Origin: a virus
Length of the DNA: 30,017 nt
Direction: 5' to 3' (one strand)
Virus genome (UHGV): UHGV-0128346
The first letter of the stretch is position 1, and the number at the start of each line of letters is the position of its first letter. The translations under genes were made by a program, and so were the position numbers. The notes beneath the pieces were generated by a model. The model did no database searches and was not told the DNA's origin. It was given only the letters and a program-made list of their open reading frames with translations. Shown here one piece after another: positions 8,522 through 21,376 of the stretch.

Positions 8522-9001
8522 TTTTATTCCTACGGGTCTTATTCTGACAATATATCCTGTGTTCCAGACTGCCACATCACCACATCCTGTGCCATTATCT
8601 GACTCACATTACATACATCGCATCGGGATACAGTAGTAGCACTTTCTGTAATACAGCTTCCGGTTTCTTCCACCATCGCACCGGGATAAATCCGCGAATC
8701 ATTAACGCGGTAAAAACCCGGTGTGCATCGTTTTTAATTATTCCCGCACACTCACGCAGAAGGAATTCCCCGTCGGGCTACGGTCATGGTTAATGCGGGA
8801 ATACGGCGACGATACAGCGCAGCTAAAAGGGTAATGGACGGATAGACCGGTTTATTTCATTCTACAGGATTCTGAGTGTCCCCAACTCCCTCCAATCGTC
8901 TGAGCTCACCTGTGTAGTTTTAATTTTCATCAATCCATTTAACTATCGTTTAATTGTTGTCACATAGGATTCTGCCGTTTTTAACAATGCAGGATAATAA
9001 G

Positions 9002-9295
9002 ATGAAAAAAATGTTGTTTTCTGCCGCTCTGGCAATGCTTATTACAGGATGTGCTCAACAGACGTTTACTGTTGGAAACAAACCGACAGCAGTAACACCA
9101 AAGGAAACCATCACCCATCATTTCTTCGTTTCGGGAATTGGGCAGAAGAAAACTGTCGATGCAGCAAAAATTTGTGGTGGTGCAGAAAATGTGGTTAAAA
9201 CAGAAACCCAGCAAACATTCGTAAATGGATTGCTCGGTTTCATCACTTTTGGCATTTATACTCCGCTGGAAGCGCGGGTGTATTGCTCAAAATAA
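9002..9295 (+). CDS. bor: Bor-like serum-resistance lipoprotein
   Basis: MKKMLFSAALAMLITGCAQQTFTV...ICGGAENVVKTETQQTFVNGLLGFIT matches recalled lambda Bor almost residue for residue; opposite strand to the lysis genes, as in lambda. Confidence 0.9.
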   Translation: MKKMLFSAALAMLITGCAQQTFTVGNKPTAVTPKETITHHFFVSGIGQKKTVDAAKICGGAENVVKTETQQTFVNGLLGFITFGIYTPLEARVYCSK

Positions 9296-11010: not shown

Positions 11011-11226
11011 TTACTCTCCTCTCGCAGCCTTTCTTCTGTCTTCTCTGATTTTGAAGTACAGATTCGTCAGATAAGTCAGAAAGCCCAGAACCAGACTTCC
11101 CAGTACACCAATCGCAGCCCACTGAGACGGACTAACCTGATCAAGCCATTGTAAAAACCAGTAGCCAGCACTGCCTGCGGAGGTGCCGTAGGCAATGCCT
11201 GTTGATATTTTTTCCATCTGATACAT
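11011..11226 (-). CDS. S: Pinholin (phage 21 S-type holin), dual-start MYQMEK
   Basis: From Met25 the ORF reads [66 protein letters not shown], essentially the S21 sequence as recalled; two closely spaced Met codons. Confidence 0.85.
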
Positions 11227-11356
11227 ATCCCGCCCCAACAGACCTGTGCTACCGGAAAGAAAAAAGGCCATCAGCAAAACTCTGATGGCCTGAATCACCT
11301 TTACCAGTCATGTATGAAAAAATACGCACAACCAATTGACAATAATTATCATTTTC

Positions 11357-11458
11357 ATTAAAAATACCGCGTAACATTCTTATTTCATGAAGAACCATAC
11401 CCGCCAGCAACCTGAGTAGCAAAAGCTGTTCATCCCCCATATTTTTGCTGGCGGGTTC
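11357..11458 (+). ncRNA. Candidate small RNA antisense to the late operon (promoter-like TTGACA-N17-TAAAAA at ~11327-11355, then 12-bp-stem hairpin 11390-11447 and U-tract)
   Basis: Promoter-like hexamers followed ~35 nt later by a perfect 12-bp inverted repeat (ACCCGCCAGCAA/TTGCTGGCGGGT) and TCTTTTTTCT; no credible ORF. Confidence 0.25.
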
Positions 11459-11682
11459 TTTTTTCTACTGCCCTCCTCCCCAGGAAAAGCATTTCATTCT
11501 TTTCTCATTAATCGTTACTGGAGAGAAGGCGGGAAAAAGCCAGCTCTTTGGCCCTAAATAACAGCATGGCTTCAGTCCATACAGAATCTGATTTTCCAGC
11601 TCACATAATAACCAGATGATGCAGTTGCAAAATCTGGCAACATCGGATTATTATGCGCCTGTGAAAATTTCTTCACGTTTTA

Positions 11683-11740
11683 TTCCTTGCCGCCCGTGCC
11701 TCCCAGCGCGGGCTTTTTTATCCAAAAAATACCCCTCCGG
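11683..11740. terminator. Back-to-back intrinsic terminators sharing a T6/A6 tract (plus-strand hairpin ~11683-11704, minus-strand hairpin ~11721-11740)
   Basis: GCCCG...CGGGC followed by TTTTTT on the plus strand; TACCCCTC-CGGA-GAGGGGTA preceded by AAAAAA on the plus strand, i.e. followed by U6 on the minus strand. Confidence 0.6.
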
Positions 11741-12028
11741 AGAGGGGTATCATACAAGGGGATGACCATGATGCATGGTGCCGGGTGCCTCCCGGTGAGT
11801 CCGGCATCAGCATACGAACCCGCGATTATCCCAGAACTGACTGCTGATTCGCCCCGCCGCTTAGGGGGATTCACCATGCGTTTTTTTATTTACAAACTCT
11901 TCGCCAGACAAACAACCATTAACTGGCTGAATTGTGAGGTATTTCAATTTTTAGAAAACTGACCAACCTCCGCTTATACGCCGGGCATGGAGCGGATACA
12001 AAAAAGCCCCGCAAAAGCAGATCAGAAG

Positions 12029-12069
12029 GATTCGTTGTAAAAAAAAAGCTGTCAGATTATCGCGCTAAT
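12029..12069 (-). terminator. Intrinsic terminator downstream of the beta-class methyltransferase
   Basis: Perfect 13-bp inverted repeat AGCTGTCAGATTA-TCGCGC-TAATCTGACAGCT, followed by a T-run of 8 or more on the minus strand. Confidence 0.7.
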
Positions 12070-12319
12070 CTGACAGCTACAGCAGGTATCCAAAAACATG
12101 GGTGGAAACAATAAGTGAGTTAAGAAGACACGGTGTCGGATTTTTACCGATGAGCCGTTGGCGTGGTCAACCGTGACTCGCTTGTATCAACGATGAATTA
12201 ATGAAGCCAATCCTTTGCAGGCTATGTACAACCCACCACATCAGCCCTGCTGCATTGCAGGATACACTGTATCTGTAATCATTATACGGCACAGACATCC
12301 CACCAATAATTGAATTAAT

Positions 12320-13381
12320 TCACAAAATTGTATTTGCTGATAACATACTGATTTCCTGGATGGTCTGATTAAACCGCTCTGTCTCAAGCTCAACACCTAA
12401 CGCCCGACGCCCCAGCGCCATTGCTGCTTTTATTGTGGAACCGGATCCCATAAAGAAATCAGCAACCAGATCGCCGGGTCGACTACTGGCATTGATTATT
12501 TGCCTGAGCATATCCGCCGGTTTCTCACACGGATGTTTACCCGGGTAGAACTGAACGGGTTTATGCATCCAGACATCGGTATAAGGCACGGAGACTGATA
12601 CGGAGAAATAGCGCCGGAGAGATTTAAACTCATCCAGCAATTCAGAATATTTGCGATTCAGTGAATCATAAGATGCCACCAACTGGTGGTGTGGTTGTTC
12701 CAGTTGTTGTTCCTGAAACTTCTCTGCCGCTATACGGGAAAACAGTGCCTGTAACTTCCGGTAGTCAGCCTCATTCGGCAACTGCCACTGACTGGCACCA
12801 AACCAGTGGGAAACCATATTTTTCTTACCTGTGGCTTCGGCAATTTGTTTTGCCGTTATACCCAGTTCGGCACGAGCATCCCTGAAATACGATATCAGCG
12901 GTGCCATTATGTGCTGTTTGAGTTCCCTTTCTTTTGCCACATAGCCGTCACTTTTGCCGCGATATGGCCCCCGGTAATGTTCAGCAAACAGAACGCGCTC
13001 TGTGGCAGGAAAATATGCGCGCAGACTTTCTTTATTACACCCATTCCAACGTCCGGACGGCTTCGCCCAGATGATATGGTTAAGCACGTTGAAACGTTCA
13101 CGCATCATGATCTCAATATCAGATGCCAGGCGATGCCCACAGAACAGGTAAAGGCTTCCGGCAGGTTTCAACACCCGCCAGAACTGGGCCAGACAGTGGT
13201 CCAGCCACTTAAGGTAATCTTCGTCCCCTTTCCACTGATTGTCCCAACCGTTGGGTTTCACCTTGAAGTAAGGCGGATCGGTAACAATCAGGTCAATGGA
13301 ATCATCAGGCAGGGACTGAATAAAATGCAGGCAATCAGCGTTGATTAAATCAATACTGTTTATTTTTACAGTGTTTTTCAT
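12320..13381 (-). CDS. DNA methyltransferase, beta-class (N6-adenine or N4-cytosine); motif IV DPPY near N-terminus, motif I FxGxG near C-terminus
   Basis: 353 aa; LIVTDPPYF at residues ~31-39 and DFFMGSGST near the C-terminus give the beta-class motif order; no adjacent restriction enzyme recognised. Confidence 0.85.
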   Translation of the reverse strand: MKNTVKINSIDLINADCLHFIQSLPDDSIDLIVTDPPYFKVKPNGWDNQWKGDEDYLKWLDHCLAQFWRVLKPAGSLYLFCGHRLASDIEIMMRERFNVLNHIIWAKPSGRWNGCNKESLRAYFPATERVLFAEHYRGPYRGKSDGYVAKERELKQHIMAPLISYFRDARAELGITAKQIAEATGKKNMVSHWFGASQWQLPNEADYRKLQALFSRIAAEKFQEQQLEQPHHQLVASYDSLNRKYSELLDEFKSLRRYFSVSVSVPYTDVWMHKPVQFYPGKHPCEKPADMLRQIINASSRPGDLVADFFMGSGSTIKAAMALGRRALGVELETERFNQTIQEISMLSANTIL

Positions 13382-14450: not shown

Positions 14451-14486
14451 TAAGAAAAAATAATTTAACCCGCTCGGCGGCGGGTT
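14451..14486 (-). terminator. tR'-like intrinsic terminator downstream of Q and the PR'-like promoter
   Basis: AACCCGC-TCGGCG-GCGGGTT hairpin followed by AAATTATTTTTT on the minus strand, ~110 nt after the Q stop. Confidence 0.6.
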
Positions 14487-14591: not shown

Positions 14592-15344
14592 TTATCTCGT
14601 CACCTTTCTCAATTGTGCTTCAGCGAATGCTTCTTCCTGCCAGCACTTTGTTACCAGTTTATCAATGACGTCTGCATATCCTTTGTACCACTGATAATCA
14701 GTCAGGTCTGGTACCAGCTTCTGGACATGACGTCGTGCCAGTGTGGTCGGTAAACGACTAAACCGGTTTCCATTGCAACGCCCACAAATCTTATAAACAG
14801 GCGCGCCATGAAGCCGGGTTCTTTTTTCATCCAGGACAATGCCTTTACCCTTACACCCTCTGCAAGCCGTGCTGACTTCTCCCTTACCATGGCAATGCTG
14901 ACATAATTCCTTCACCCACTCTTCCTTGATAACAGATTCCCCGCTTCTGGAGTGTTTCACCACTTCGCGCAATACACTATGAAATCCAGTACCAGCACAA
15001 TGCTCACAGCGAGCCTTACTTGCCGCAGACCTGGAATAATCAGCAAAGGCAAAACTCACAAGGTAAGGGATGATCTGTAACCGGGTTTCTTCACTCAATT
15101 TGTTCAATGTCGGGTTATCCATTGCCATCGCGTAATTGAGCAGACCTTCAATCGCAAACTGAGGATCCTGAACACCAACTTTTGCCAGGAATAAGGCAAA
15201 CCCAAGCGGTGCTTTCGACTGCACCATCCCCTGCGCAGCCATCACATCCGTAATCGTTAAACCACCTGAGCCTGTCGCCGGTGCGTCATCGCTCAATTTT
15301 GGAGATTTTGGGGAGTAATATTTTGGTAAGGCTTCAAGGTTCAT
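14592..15344 (-). CDS. Q: Late-gene antiterminator Q (lambda Q family, 250 aa)
   Basis: Matches recalled lambda Q: YYSPKSPKLSDDAPATGSGGLTITDVMAAQGM, FAFADYSRSAASKARCEHCAGTG, C-terminal ...VTR; Cys-rich zinc-binding motifs; same length as the Qin prophage homologue. Confidence 0.85.
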   Translation of the reverse strand: MNLEALPKYYSPKSPKLSDDAPATGSGGLTITDVMAAQGMVQSKAPLGFALFLAKVGVQDPQFAIEGLLNYAMAMDNPTLNKLSEETRLQIIPYLVSFAFADYSRSAASKARCEHCAGTGFHSVLREVVKHSRSGESVIKEEWVKELCQHCHGKGEVSTACRGCKGKGIVLDEKRTRLHGAPVYKICGRCNGNRFSRLPTTLARRHVQKLVPDLTDYQWYKGYADVIDKLVTKCWQEEAFAEAQLRKVTR

Positions 15345-20780: not shown

Positions 20781-20942
20781 AGTGACATCCTCATGTGCGA
20801 ATTTTGAAAACTCACCACATGGGACGCCAATCACAGAGGTGGTGAGACGTACAGGGTTGGCGTAACCGGTCGCACATGACCCCGGCGCATCTTTCGATGC
20901 CCCTGCACGCCCCACCATAATTTGGATGTGAGGAAACGTGCG

Positions 20943-20966
20943 CAAAAAAACCGCTGAAGCGCGGTT
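20943..20966 (-). terminator. tR1-like intrinsic terminator in the early-right operon
   Basis: ACCGC-TGAAGC-GCGGT hairpin followed by U7 on the minus strand. Confidence 0.5.
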
Positions 20967-21376
20967 ATGCGCATGTGCGAATTTCAGGACGCCAATCCCG
21001 GCACCCGCTTTATAAGGTGCCTGAACAGTGTAACGTCCCGGAATTGCAGAATCAATATGCTGGTGGTCCTTCACACTCAACAAAATCACGCCTGAATTTC
21101 CACAAAGGACTAAAGCACTCATGCGGGTAGTCTTTGCGAAGATAGATAACGCGCTGTGTTTCTGGCTCCCAACGAATAACATGGACATAAAGCCCTCTTC
21201 CGTCACGAAACCAGCGGTTAAGTTCCTGCACAACTCGCCCCCCACAGTCAGGTAAAGTTCTCTGTGGTTACTTACAGCCAGGTGATTTGGTAATCTGCAT
21301 TCATGCCGTAACAACAGGTGTTCAGCGACGCTGACCACCAGCTGTTGCGACAAACGGTTATTTGCCGTTAAACTAT

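Follow-up and report, generated by a model that had tools for sequence, protein, structure and literature searches.

Organization of the methyltransferase-holin interval

The DNA analysed here (UHGV virus genome UHGV-0128346, 30,017 nt, hereafter the window) is a lambdoid prophage of extraintestinal and avian pathogenic Escherichia coli (ExPEC/APEC) whose late operon lies on the minus strand. Between the stop codon of a DNA methyltransferase gene, a cargo or moron gene, and the start of a class II holin gene there is a gap of ~1.09 kb (11226-12320) that is unannotated in most RefSeq records. The original prediction, made from the letters alone, had described it as rich in hairpins and poor in open reading frames (ORFs), with a candidate antisense small RNA (sRNA) and back-to-back terminators. 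We consider it likely that this gap is a lambdoid moron-site small-RNA cluster downstream of the late promoter PR′, with at least three self-contained transcription units. Unit (a) would be a sense sRNA of the STnc100 family running from 11908 or 11871 to ~11722, unit (b) a plus-strand RNA converging on STnc100 and ending at 11719, and unit (c) a plus-strand sRNA of ~95 nt upstream of the lysis cassette, with a near-consensus sigma-70 promoter that carries a putative Fur operator in its -35 and spacer. The features, in coordinates of the window, are as follows.

11720-11908, minus strand, sense to the late operon: STnc100-family sRNA gene (unit a), terminator 11751-11728
11751-11728, minus strand: minus-strand facing terminator, its run read from A6 11724-11729
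11692-11713, plus strand: plus-strand facing terminator, followed by T6 11714-11719 (terminator scan: 8 pairs, 7 GC)
11661-11720, plus strand: 3′ module of the convergent RNA (unit b), with a 5′ mini-hairpin, a U-rich linker and the terminator 11692-11713
11591-11668, plus strand: imperfect inverted repeat with 32-nt arms, 72% complementary
11625-11654, plus strand: promoter-like TTGCAA-N18-TATTAT inside the inverted repeat
11336-11364, plus strand: sigma-70 promoter of unit (c), with a Fur box at 11338-11356 over the -35 and spacer
~11372 (predicted transcription start site) to ~11465 (3′ end), plus strand, antisense to the late operon: candidate sRNA of ~92-95 nt (unit c)
11258-11291, minus strand: sense terminator before the holin gene, stem 11291-11265, T-run 11264-11258
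12039-12078, minus strand: strong sense terminator, 13-bp stem and T8, 240 nt past the methyltransferase stop
12008-12021, minus strand: weak terminator-like hairpin within a 44-bp segment (11975-12018)
11226, minus strand: true start of the class II holin gene (216-nt gene in RefSeq)
12320-13381, minus strand: DNA methyltransferase (moron/cargo), stop at 12320
14486-14467, minus strand: terminator tR′, preceded by a PR′-like promoter
14592-15344, late operon: antiterminator Q
8954-9295, plus strand: iss (increased serum survival, a bor homologue), just past the lysis cassette

An STnc100-family gene on the late-operon strand

The minus-strand member of the facing terminators had been recognized in the original prediction, which missed that it ends a known sRNA gene. 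This gene belongs to the STnc100 family. An Rfam scan that covered the whole window matched it to RF02076 over the full model (positions 1-206 of 206) at 114.5 bits, where the gathering score is 47 (E = 1.3e-24). By analogy with PasD, the transcript has a probable start site near 11871 (GCAUGGUGAAUCC...). The location is also that of the family, between a moron (here the methyltransferase) and the holin gene on the late-operon strand: the Stx1, Stx2 and Sp4 phages carry their STnc100 copies at the equivalent place, those of VT1-Sakai (176.7 bits) and an Stx2a phage (185.7 bits) being downstream of stx1B/stx2B.

Some of these relatives are known as discrete Hfq-associated RNAs. The Sp5 copy is EcOnc27, since the sequence of its Northern probe is found within our Sp5 segment (L011). 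EcOnc27 gives Hfq-dependent species of 235/247 nt on Northern blots (Tree et al. 2014, PMC4104026), EcOnc05 is ~222 nt long, and PasD of enteropathogenic E. coli (EPEC) has been related to STnc100 by Zhu, Shabalina and Storz (bioRxiv 10.64898/2026.05.13.724894). No function has been described for STnc100 in any host (PMC12370729).

The copy in the window shares with the family (EcOnc27/EcOnc05, and the related PasD1/PasD2) the 5′ hairpin GGUGAAUCCCCC...GGGGC and the core CGGGUUC...CUCACCGGGAGGCACCCGGCACCAUGCA, and has the 5′ GCAUGGUGAAUCC hairpin in common with the PasD2 locus. Like its relatives it lies downstream of a moron coding sequence (CDS), in the sense of the late operon, with a Rho-independent terminator of its own. 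It differs from the Stx-phage copies by its lower score (114.5 vs 177-186 bits) and a shortened middle part, and its 3′ single-stranded part and terminator (UCAUGGUCAUCCCCUUGUAUGA...) are unrelated in sequence; in PasD that region holds the seed. An alignment of five members (window, Sp5, Sp15, Stx2a phage and PasD2) consists of a conserved core followed by a divergent 3′ arm and terminator. In the RNAalifold structure of these five, the window sequence keeps 29 of the 31 pairs. Its core helices, i.e. the 5′ hairpin and a central three-way region closed by GGUG/CACC, are invariant or show one-sided changes, while the terminator helix covaries (AU/UA/GC).

Coding potential of the gap

The longest ORFs of the gap encode 91, 65 and 63 amino acids, in line with its description as ORF-poor. 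One may nevertheless ask whether the gap is what decay has left of one or several protein-coding cargo genes, with hairpins that arose by chance. RefSeq hypothetical proteins placed here in some records (WP_000502162.1 and WP_000972071.1) would speak for this, as would two gap ORFs with matches to PHROG families that have no assigned function. Yet no ORF of the gap has a Pfam match, and that of 63 amino acids (11249-11440, minus strand) is frame-broken by 1-nt and 2-nt indels in the homologue of the E. coli N64 type. The 91-amino-acid ORF is antisense to the STnc100 gene, and the ORFs with PHROG matches, lying over or antisense to STnc100, are best explained as calls on a conserved RNA gene. 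Nor is a full-length covariance-model match such as that of STnc100 a chance result, and terminator-like sites are enriched ~7-fold, with 13 between 10900 and 12700 compared with 1.8 +/- 1.4 in shuffled sequences, which bears out the hairpin-rich character noted before. Decay or lack of conservation had been named as what would speak against a regulatory reading; related prophages and plasmids have kept the region, and it does not look like a gene in decay. We regard the remnant explanation as very improbable. The gap is non-coding regulatory DNA, as it was originally read, and the RefSeq and PHROG proteins are probably ORF calls made on, or antisense to, sRNA genes. As a separate observation, the ORFs 11249-11440 (minus strand) and 11768-11962 (plus strand) coincide with WP_000502162.1, WP_000972071.1, phrog_24488, phrog_27294 and phrog_35554.

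A putative convergent plus-strand RNA

Two terminators facing each other across a shared T6/A6 tract had been proposed. Both are present, and the tracts are adjacent (T6-ATCC-A6) rather than literally shared. The plus-strand terminator closes the 3′ module of unit (b), which folds with z = -5.1 and is ~80% identical to counterparts in Sp15, Sp4, the Stx2a phage and N64, the last without STnc100. By BLAST, window positions 11643-11805 are 78% identical to Sp15, with the -10-like TATTAT, CUUCACGUUU, UUAUUCCUUGCCGCC and the terminator conserved, whereas upstream of 11643 the window is unrelated to Sp15. The TATTAT and TTGC elements are kept in the Sp15, Stx2a-phage and N64 homologues, and the N64 version of the inverted repeat mends two stem mismatches.

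In Sp4, the homologous 73 nt coincide with EcOnc08 (1179938-1180010, minus strand; segment L068 1439-1511, minus strand), a peak of Hfq cross-linking and analysis of cDNA (Hfq-CRAC). This peak was present in 5/5 Hfq-CRAC datasets and is, with EcOnc21/42, part of an RNA of ~271 nt (Tree et al. 2014, PMC4104026). The same study described convergent sRNA pairs between a moron CDS and the next phage ORF in Sp3, 4, 5, 9, 10, 11, 15 and 17, and their facing layout between a cargo gene and the next phage gene is that of the window. In the Sp5 pair EcOnc27/AsxR the terminators are a few bases apart, the same layout as at 11692-11751, and unit (b) stands, like RNAs of the AsxR/AgvB type, as the antisense half of a convergent pair with an STnc100-type RNA. 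The Sakai EcOnc08/21/42 RNA differs in that it starts inside or antisense to the 5′ end of nanS-p, a gene that the window does not have. The homology of unit (b) covers the 3′ ~80 nt of the Sp4/Sp15 RNA, and the sequence ahead of these is not that of Sakai.

We have tried and rejected membership of unit (b) in the AsxR/AgvB families themselves (RF02703/RF02702): 11610-11735 gave no AsxR or AgvB match at E values up to 10, and the ~42-nt 3′ region of these RNAs (..GUAUCUCAUGC..UUGCCCGAACCCA.UCGGGC) is absent, a generic GC-rich terminator being all that is held in common. Unit (b) could be an sRNA of ~60 nt, but a longer antisense RNA of which it forms the Hfq-binding 3′ end is also possible, as the long inverted repeat 11591-11668 suggests.

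A candidate antisense sRNA upstream of the holin gene

The promoter proposed for unit (c) is exact (TTGACA 11336-11341, N17 11342-11358, TAAAAA 11359-11364) and scores 10/12 in our promoter scan. The 12-bp hairpin proposed downstream is likewise present, with arms (11399-11410/11445-11456) that are 100% complementary and followed by TTCTTTTTTC up to 11465. The predicted RNA of ~92-95 nt, with its own promoter and terminator hairpin, makes the earlier suggestion of an antisense transcript of ~85-100 nt a plausible one. It folds with -31.2 kcal/mol (z = -6.4) into a single-stranded, U-rich 5′ part, a lower stem of 12 bp, an inner stem of 8 bp, a C-rich internal loop with CAUCCCC and the U-tract UUCUUUUUUC. 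Because there is no U-tract on the minus strand, the hairpin is a terminator on the plus strand only, and for the same reason late transcription would run past the plus-strand hairpins.

In a comparison of five lineages, conservation is highest in the hairpin and U-tract, with 0.07 and 0.00 differences per site compared to 0.17-0.34 in the flanks, although a part of the set was collected via an exact 23-nt loop motif, which inflates the conservation of the loop. A covariance model of the window family (R1) finds unit (c) in plasmid, ST131, Shigella and N64 copies with 102-124 bits, while no Rfam family matches this strand. Judged from these features, unit (c) looks real as an antisense sRNA gene. 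When its RNA was paired by RNAduplex with the 15 translation-initiation regions of the window, shuffled controls scored equally.

A mini-ORF of 10 codons (MKNHTRQQPE; 11387-11419, plus strand) lies inside unit (c) and is open in all seven sequence variants; the G-to-A change by which the plasmid allele breaks a stem pair (see below) is synonymous in its frame. We have discarded it as a coding sequence: it has no Shine–Dalgarno sequence and its differences are mostly non-synonymous.

A Fur box in the promoter of unit (c)

What the original prediction did not notice in this promoter, whose elements it had right, is a putative Fur operator. The Fur consensus GATAATGATAATCATTATC is matched at 16/19 positions by 11338-11356, overlapping the -35 and the spacer. 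This is the only site with at most 3 mismatches in the 30-kb window, and none of 100 shuffled sequences gave any. Homologous variants keep 14-17 of the 19 positions.

Comparison with Sp15 by BLAST unexpectedly paired the unit (c) promoter with sequence upstream of stx1A. The 17 nt between its -35 and -10, ATAATTATCATTTTCAT, are the same as those in Pstx1, the Fur-repressed Shiga toxin 1 promoter, in Sp15, and have the same orientation relative to the transcribed strand; it is in this spacer that the Fur-binding sequence of Pstx1 lies (PMC10042803). The two promoters differ in the -35 (TTGACA here, TTGAAT in Pstx1) and in the -10 (TAAAAA and TACGTT, respectively), and whereas Pstx1 drives a toxin operon in the late direction, the promoter in the window would drive a short non-coding RNA away from the lysis genes. 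Because of the unique 16/19 Fur box and the spacer identical to that of Pstx1, we propose that Fur represses unit (c), which would then be made in low iron. The proposed logic is that of the core-genome, Fur-repressed and Hfq-dependent RyhB, i.e. an RNA of ~90 nt that ends at a terminator and is made in low iron, with a Fur operator across its promoter. Unit (c) has no sequence or Rfam relation to RyhB and, unlike it, is carried by a mobile element. The literature that we searched contained no described Fur-regulated prophage or ColV sRNA and no chromatin immunoprecipitation (ChIP) or expression report for this locus, which is not proof of novelty.

Relation to PasA, PasC and EcOnc52

PasA and PasC of EPEC strain E2348/69 are Hfq-dependent sRNAs verified by Northern blot, with many trans partners in RIL-seq, the sequencing of interacting RNAs after their ligation (PMC8550237). 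Both are located opposite the late-operon strand just upstream of the holin gene and have TTGACA-N17-GAAAAT promoters and GCCAGC-containing terminators. EcOnc52 of Sp4, a prophage of enterohaemorrhagic E. coli (EHEC), is a Hfq-bound relative of PasC in the same position. Unit (c) has the position and orientation of these RNAs (directly upstream of the holin-lysozyme operon and pointing away from it), a 3′ stem-loop with U-tract, a promoter of the same TTGACA-N17-(G/T)AAAA type and a predicted size within the same 80-95 nt. A terminator stem with GCCAGC is common to unit (c) and PasA, where it doubles as the seed. Unlike PasA, PasC and EcOnc52, unit (c) has a branched interior of 34 nt in its terminator hairpin and a Fur box in its promoter, and is tied to prophages without nanS-p and to ColV-type plasmids.

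Direct homology to PasA or PasC was not supported: local alignments remained at chance level (z = 0.6-1.1), R1 had no match on the PasA and PasC loci at E values up to 10, and no significant similarity to EcOnc52 was found either. R1 does give marginal matches in Sp5 and Sp15, to antisense elements that occupy the same position (E = 0.003 and 0.0075, both rough values). Unit (c) resembles these elements (z = 6-8) through the promoter alone (24/29 nt), and the elements in turn resemble PasC/EcOnc52 (z = 8.5-10.7) in the terminator and the 3′ flank of nanS-p. Since the Sp5/Sp15 element shares its promoter with unit (c) and its terminator and flank with PasC/EcOnc52, the relation between unit (c) and PasC is a mosaic one. 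We have treated unit (c) as a putative new subfamily of the same kind as PasA/PasC.

The Sp5/Sp15 element is itself an apparently unnamed antisense promoter-terminator unit at the 3′ end of nanS-p (Sp5, L011 6078-6150, minus strand; VT1-Sakai/Sp15, L009 1353-1423, plus strand). Its promoter TTGACAATAAGAACTGTTTTCATT(T)AAAAA is like that of the window and its terminator like that of PasC, and it is not in the EcOnc table of Tree et al.

Distribution of unit (c) and the question of a cis target

The region and its flanks are 100% identical to those of IHE3034, APEC O78, PMV-1 and ~120 other complete genomes. The region itself has no homologue in the K-12 prophages DLP12 and Qin. The block 11256-11623 is ~85% conserved in ~1,400 further E. 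coli records, including ST131 chromosomal remnants and ColV-type plasmids. Most of the 1,597 E. coli genomes matching the region (~1,500) carry unit (c), without annotation. In PLSDB it is present on 574 plasmids (531 Escherichia, 21 Klebsiella, 17 Salmonella and 5 Shigella), 537 of which are conjugative, and IMG/VR holds 48 more copies. Among species-representative genomes it was found only in E. coli and Shigella flexneri. The ColV-type plasmid copies sit between iss and iroB. That iss lies just past the lysis cassette in the prophage and beside unit (c) on plasmids is consistent with the plasmid region being derived from such a prophage. One strain, E. coli ACN001, has the prophage allele on its chromosome (NZ_CP007442.1, 100%) and the ColV-type allele on a plasmid (NC_023327.1, 88.5%).

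The class II holin gene directly follows unit (c) in 40 of 51 evaluable copies. This arrangement raises the question of whether the Fur-box RNA acts mainly in cis, by pairing with the late transcript in a segment 150-240 nt ahead of the holin start, or by transcriptional collision, so that iron status would modulate holin and lysis expression or read-through. Its complementarity to any late transcript is perfect, its promoter faces the late operon, and PasA, PasC and EcOnc52 have the same position and orientation. However, in the other 11 copies, as on the ColV-type plasmids and in ST131, the holin gene is gone while unit (c) persists, with promoter, Fur box and terminator intact. As the unit persists where the holin has been deleted, its upkeep needs no cis target; besides, PasA and PasC have their many partners in trans. 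A mainly cis-antisense role, which would be compatible with action in trans, thus appears rather unlikely to us.

Sense-strand terminators between PR′ and the holin gene

Five clear intrinsic terminators, at 14486, 13870, 12078, 11751 and 11291, lie on the sense strand between PR′ and the holin gene. The claim that Q-modified polymerase must pass several of them, at least four by the original count, was therefore right. The same prediction suggested that the hairpins may partition expression of the cargo genes. As a main role this did not stand up: they are primarily the 3′ ends of separate sRNA units, because the facing pair ends STnc100 and a convergent RNA with an Hfq-bound homologue in Sp4. 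Hairpins that form the 3′ ends of independent sRNA transcription units have been described for lambdoid moron sites (PMC4104026). As a means of insulation the proposal is plausible.

It could also be that the hairpins act in cis only, as terminators or insulators at moron boundaries, and that the plus-strand transcript is non-functional or incidental. Morons typically carry a promoter and terminator of their own (Juhala et al. 2000, cited in PMC4104026), and the five sense terminators, the lack of stem covariation in unit (c) and the lack of predicted targets would all agree with such a view. It does not sit well with STnc100 being a bona fide sRNA family with stable Hfq-associated relatives, with a unit (c) hairpin far better conserved than its flanks, or with the finding that unit (c) is intact in ST131 remnants and on the 574 plasmids, which have neither a late operon nor a holin left to insulate. 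We consider an exclusively cis-acting role of the hairpins unlikely, and prefer the reading of the gap as a cluster of sRNA units.

The terminator at 11291, ~35 nt upstream of the holin start, is a perfect 10-nt inverted repeat (10 pairs in the scan, 6 of them GC). It is kept in the holin-linked copies of the region and has decayed in the holin-less plasmid and ST131 remnants, the same ones in which unit (c) is intact; this decay upon loss of the holin fits a role in shielding the lysis genes. An analogous terminator stands ahead of the holin gene in E2348/69. A short sense RNA may also end at the 11291 terminator. We do not claim an SgrS identity for 11260-11356 (minus strand), which scored 24.8 bits, below the Rfam gathering score of 37; most of this score comes from the generic terminator, and by eye the seed is unlike the ptsG-pairing sequence.

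The strong 13-bp terminator is present as proposed, with coordinates that were ~10 nt off (12078-12047, minus strand, followed by T8 12046-12039, instead of 12029-12069). It closes the methyltransferase moron, and the block is most simply the 3′ region of the methyltransferase with its terminator. The segment 12038-12136 (minus strand) folds with z = -4.5, and an RNA of ~95 nt ending at this terminator may start from a TTGACC-N17-GTAAAA promoter at 12168-12140, which was read by eye and is not among the results of the promoter scan. The block 11940-12320 is confined to this prophage lineage, where it is ~100% identical in 122 genomes; outside the lineage there is just one partial match (73%), in a region rich in insertion sequences (IS). 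A second STnc100 match at 12087-12294 (minus strand) was dismissed as not significant (17.6 bits, E 0.49).

Two further observations concern this block. RNA from 12087-12136 (minus strand), upstream of the 12078 terminator, contains AACUCACUU, which resembles the CUCACA recognised by PasD seeds in their targets; the likeness may be a coincidence or a possible sponge site. The 44-bp segment 11975-12018 (…GGAGCGGATACAAAAAAGCCCCGCAAAAGCAGA…), which includes the weak hairpin, recurs in PPompW-type phages and in many O157, O26 and O111 genomes with ~89-91% identity, and a 30-nt match to it lies between the argO tRNA gene and stx2A in Sp5 (segment L011 1036-1065).

Prophage setting

Two small cargo ORFs lie between tR′ and the methyltransferase gene, and the holin gene is followed by ydfR, lysozyme and Rz. 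In the E. coli N64 prophage (segment L006 3529-4703) the pre-holin non-coding block is preceded by an AB5-toxin moron, consisting of a scabin-related ADP-ribosyltransferase and a subtilase-family B subunit, that replaces the methyltransferase and STnc100. The swap of the moron beside the same pre-holin block shows that blocks are exchanged as modules. In the early region, two RNAs were found above the Rfam gathering score, a C4 antisense RNA (20835-20922, minus strand, 75.1 bits) and the Hfq-binding isrK RNA (20944-21020, minus strand, 62.3 bits). These neighbours constitute a P1/P7-type c4/isrK immunity module as in Gifsy-type prophages.

A model for the gap and its implications

We have summarized the data in a model of the gap. 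In the lysogen, transcripts from PR′ would halt at tR′, and each sRNA would be transcribed from its own promoter, end at its own Rho-independent terminator and act by Hfq-type base pairing with mRNAs of host or phage. Synthesis of unit (c) would be confined to low iron, once Fur leaves its operator. The sense terminators at 12078, 11751 and 11291 would keep cargo and sRNA transcription off the holin gene, and after induction Q-modified polymerase would read through all terminators.

A number of points weigh against this model. The 5′ and 3′ ends of the transcripts in this prophage are all predicted from sequence, the fold of STnc100 taken alone is unexceptional (z = -1.8), and unit (b) may measure ~60 nt, if it starts at the promoter-like site, or more, as does the Sakai RNA of ~271 nt. 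The stem of unit (c) shows no compensatory change in 54 copies (7 distinct sRNA sequences), because the homologues come from only about five shallow lineages with nearly invariant stems, and in the plasmid lineage one lower-stem pair is lost through a G to A change at 11407. Compared over its whole sequence, unit (c) is not significantly similar to PasA/PasC, to which it is linked only via the promoter shared with Sp5/Sp15 and the marginal model matches. A match to the Fur box is by itself not binding, and the commonest allele (L022 type) matches at 14/19 positions.

The architecture as such is already known from EHEC and EPEC prophages (Tree et al. 2014); what is new is the putative antisense RNA with the Fur box, together with its distribution on virulence plasmids. 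The sequence features would allow unit (c) to represent an undescribed family of Fur-repressed, Hfq-type sRNAs on mobile elements that is switched on by iron starvation of the host, a tentative proposal that we hold to be possible rather than probable. If true, unit (c) would be an accessory counterpart of RyhB that ties a prophage and plasmid regulator, possibly also lysis, to iron limitation in extraintestinal infection. Its carriers would be ExPEC/APEC prophages and hundreds of conjugative ColV-type plasmids with hosts among Escherichia, Klebsiella, Salmonella and Shigella, the plasmids having it as a relic on its own beside iss and the salmochelin (iro) genes.

The region is blank or filled with spurious hypothetical proteins in the RefSeq records of IHE3034, APEC O78, PMV-1, ST131 chromosomes and ColV-type plasmids, and the PHROG and RefSeq hypothetical families concerned can now be flagged as probable ORF calls on RNA genes. 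The picture of moron-site RNAs drawn for EHEC and EPEC, with STnc100/PasD, convergent partners and antisense RNAs at the PasA/PasC position, is extended to extraintestinal pathogens. The proposed insulation would account for lysis genes that are silent in lysogens even with cargo and sRNA promoters upstream of them. Unit (c) is a concrete candidate for an accessory sRNA that would respond to iron and that virulence plasmids carry together with iss and the siderophore genes iro. If control by Fur is confirmed, its promoter would be the second in a prophage late region, after Pstx1, to be wired to the iron sensing of the host.

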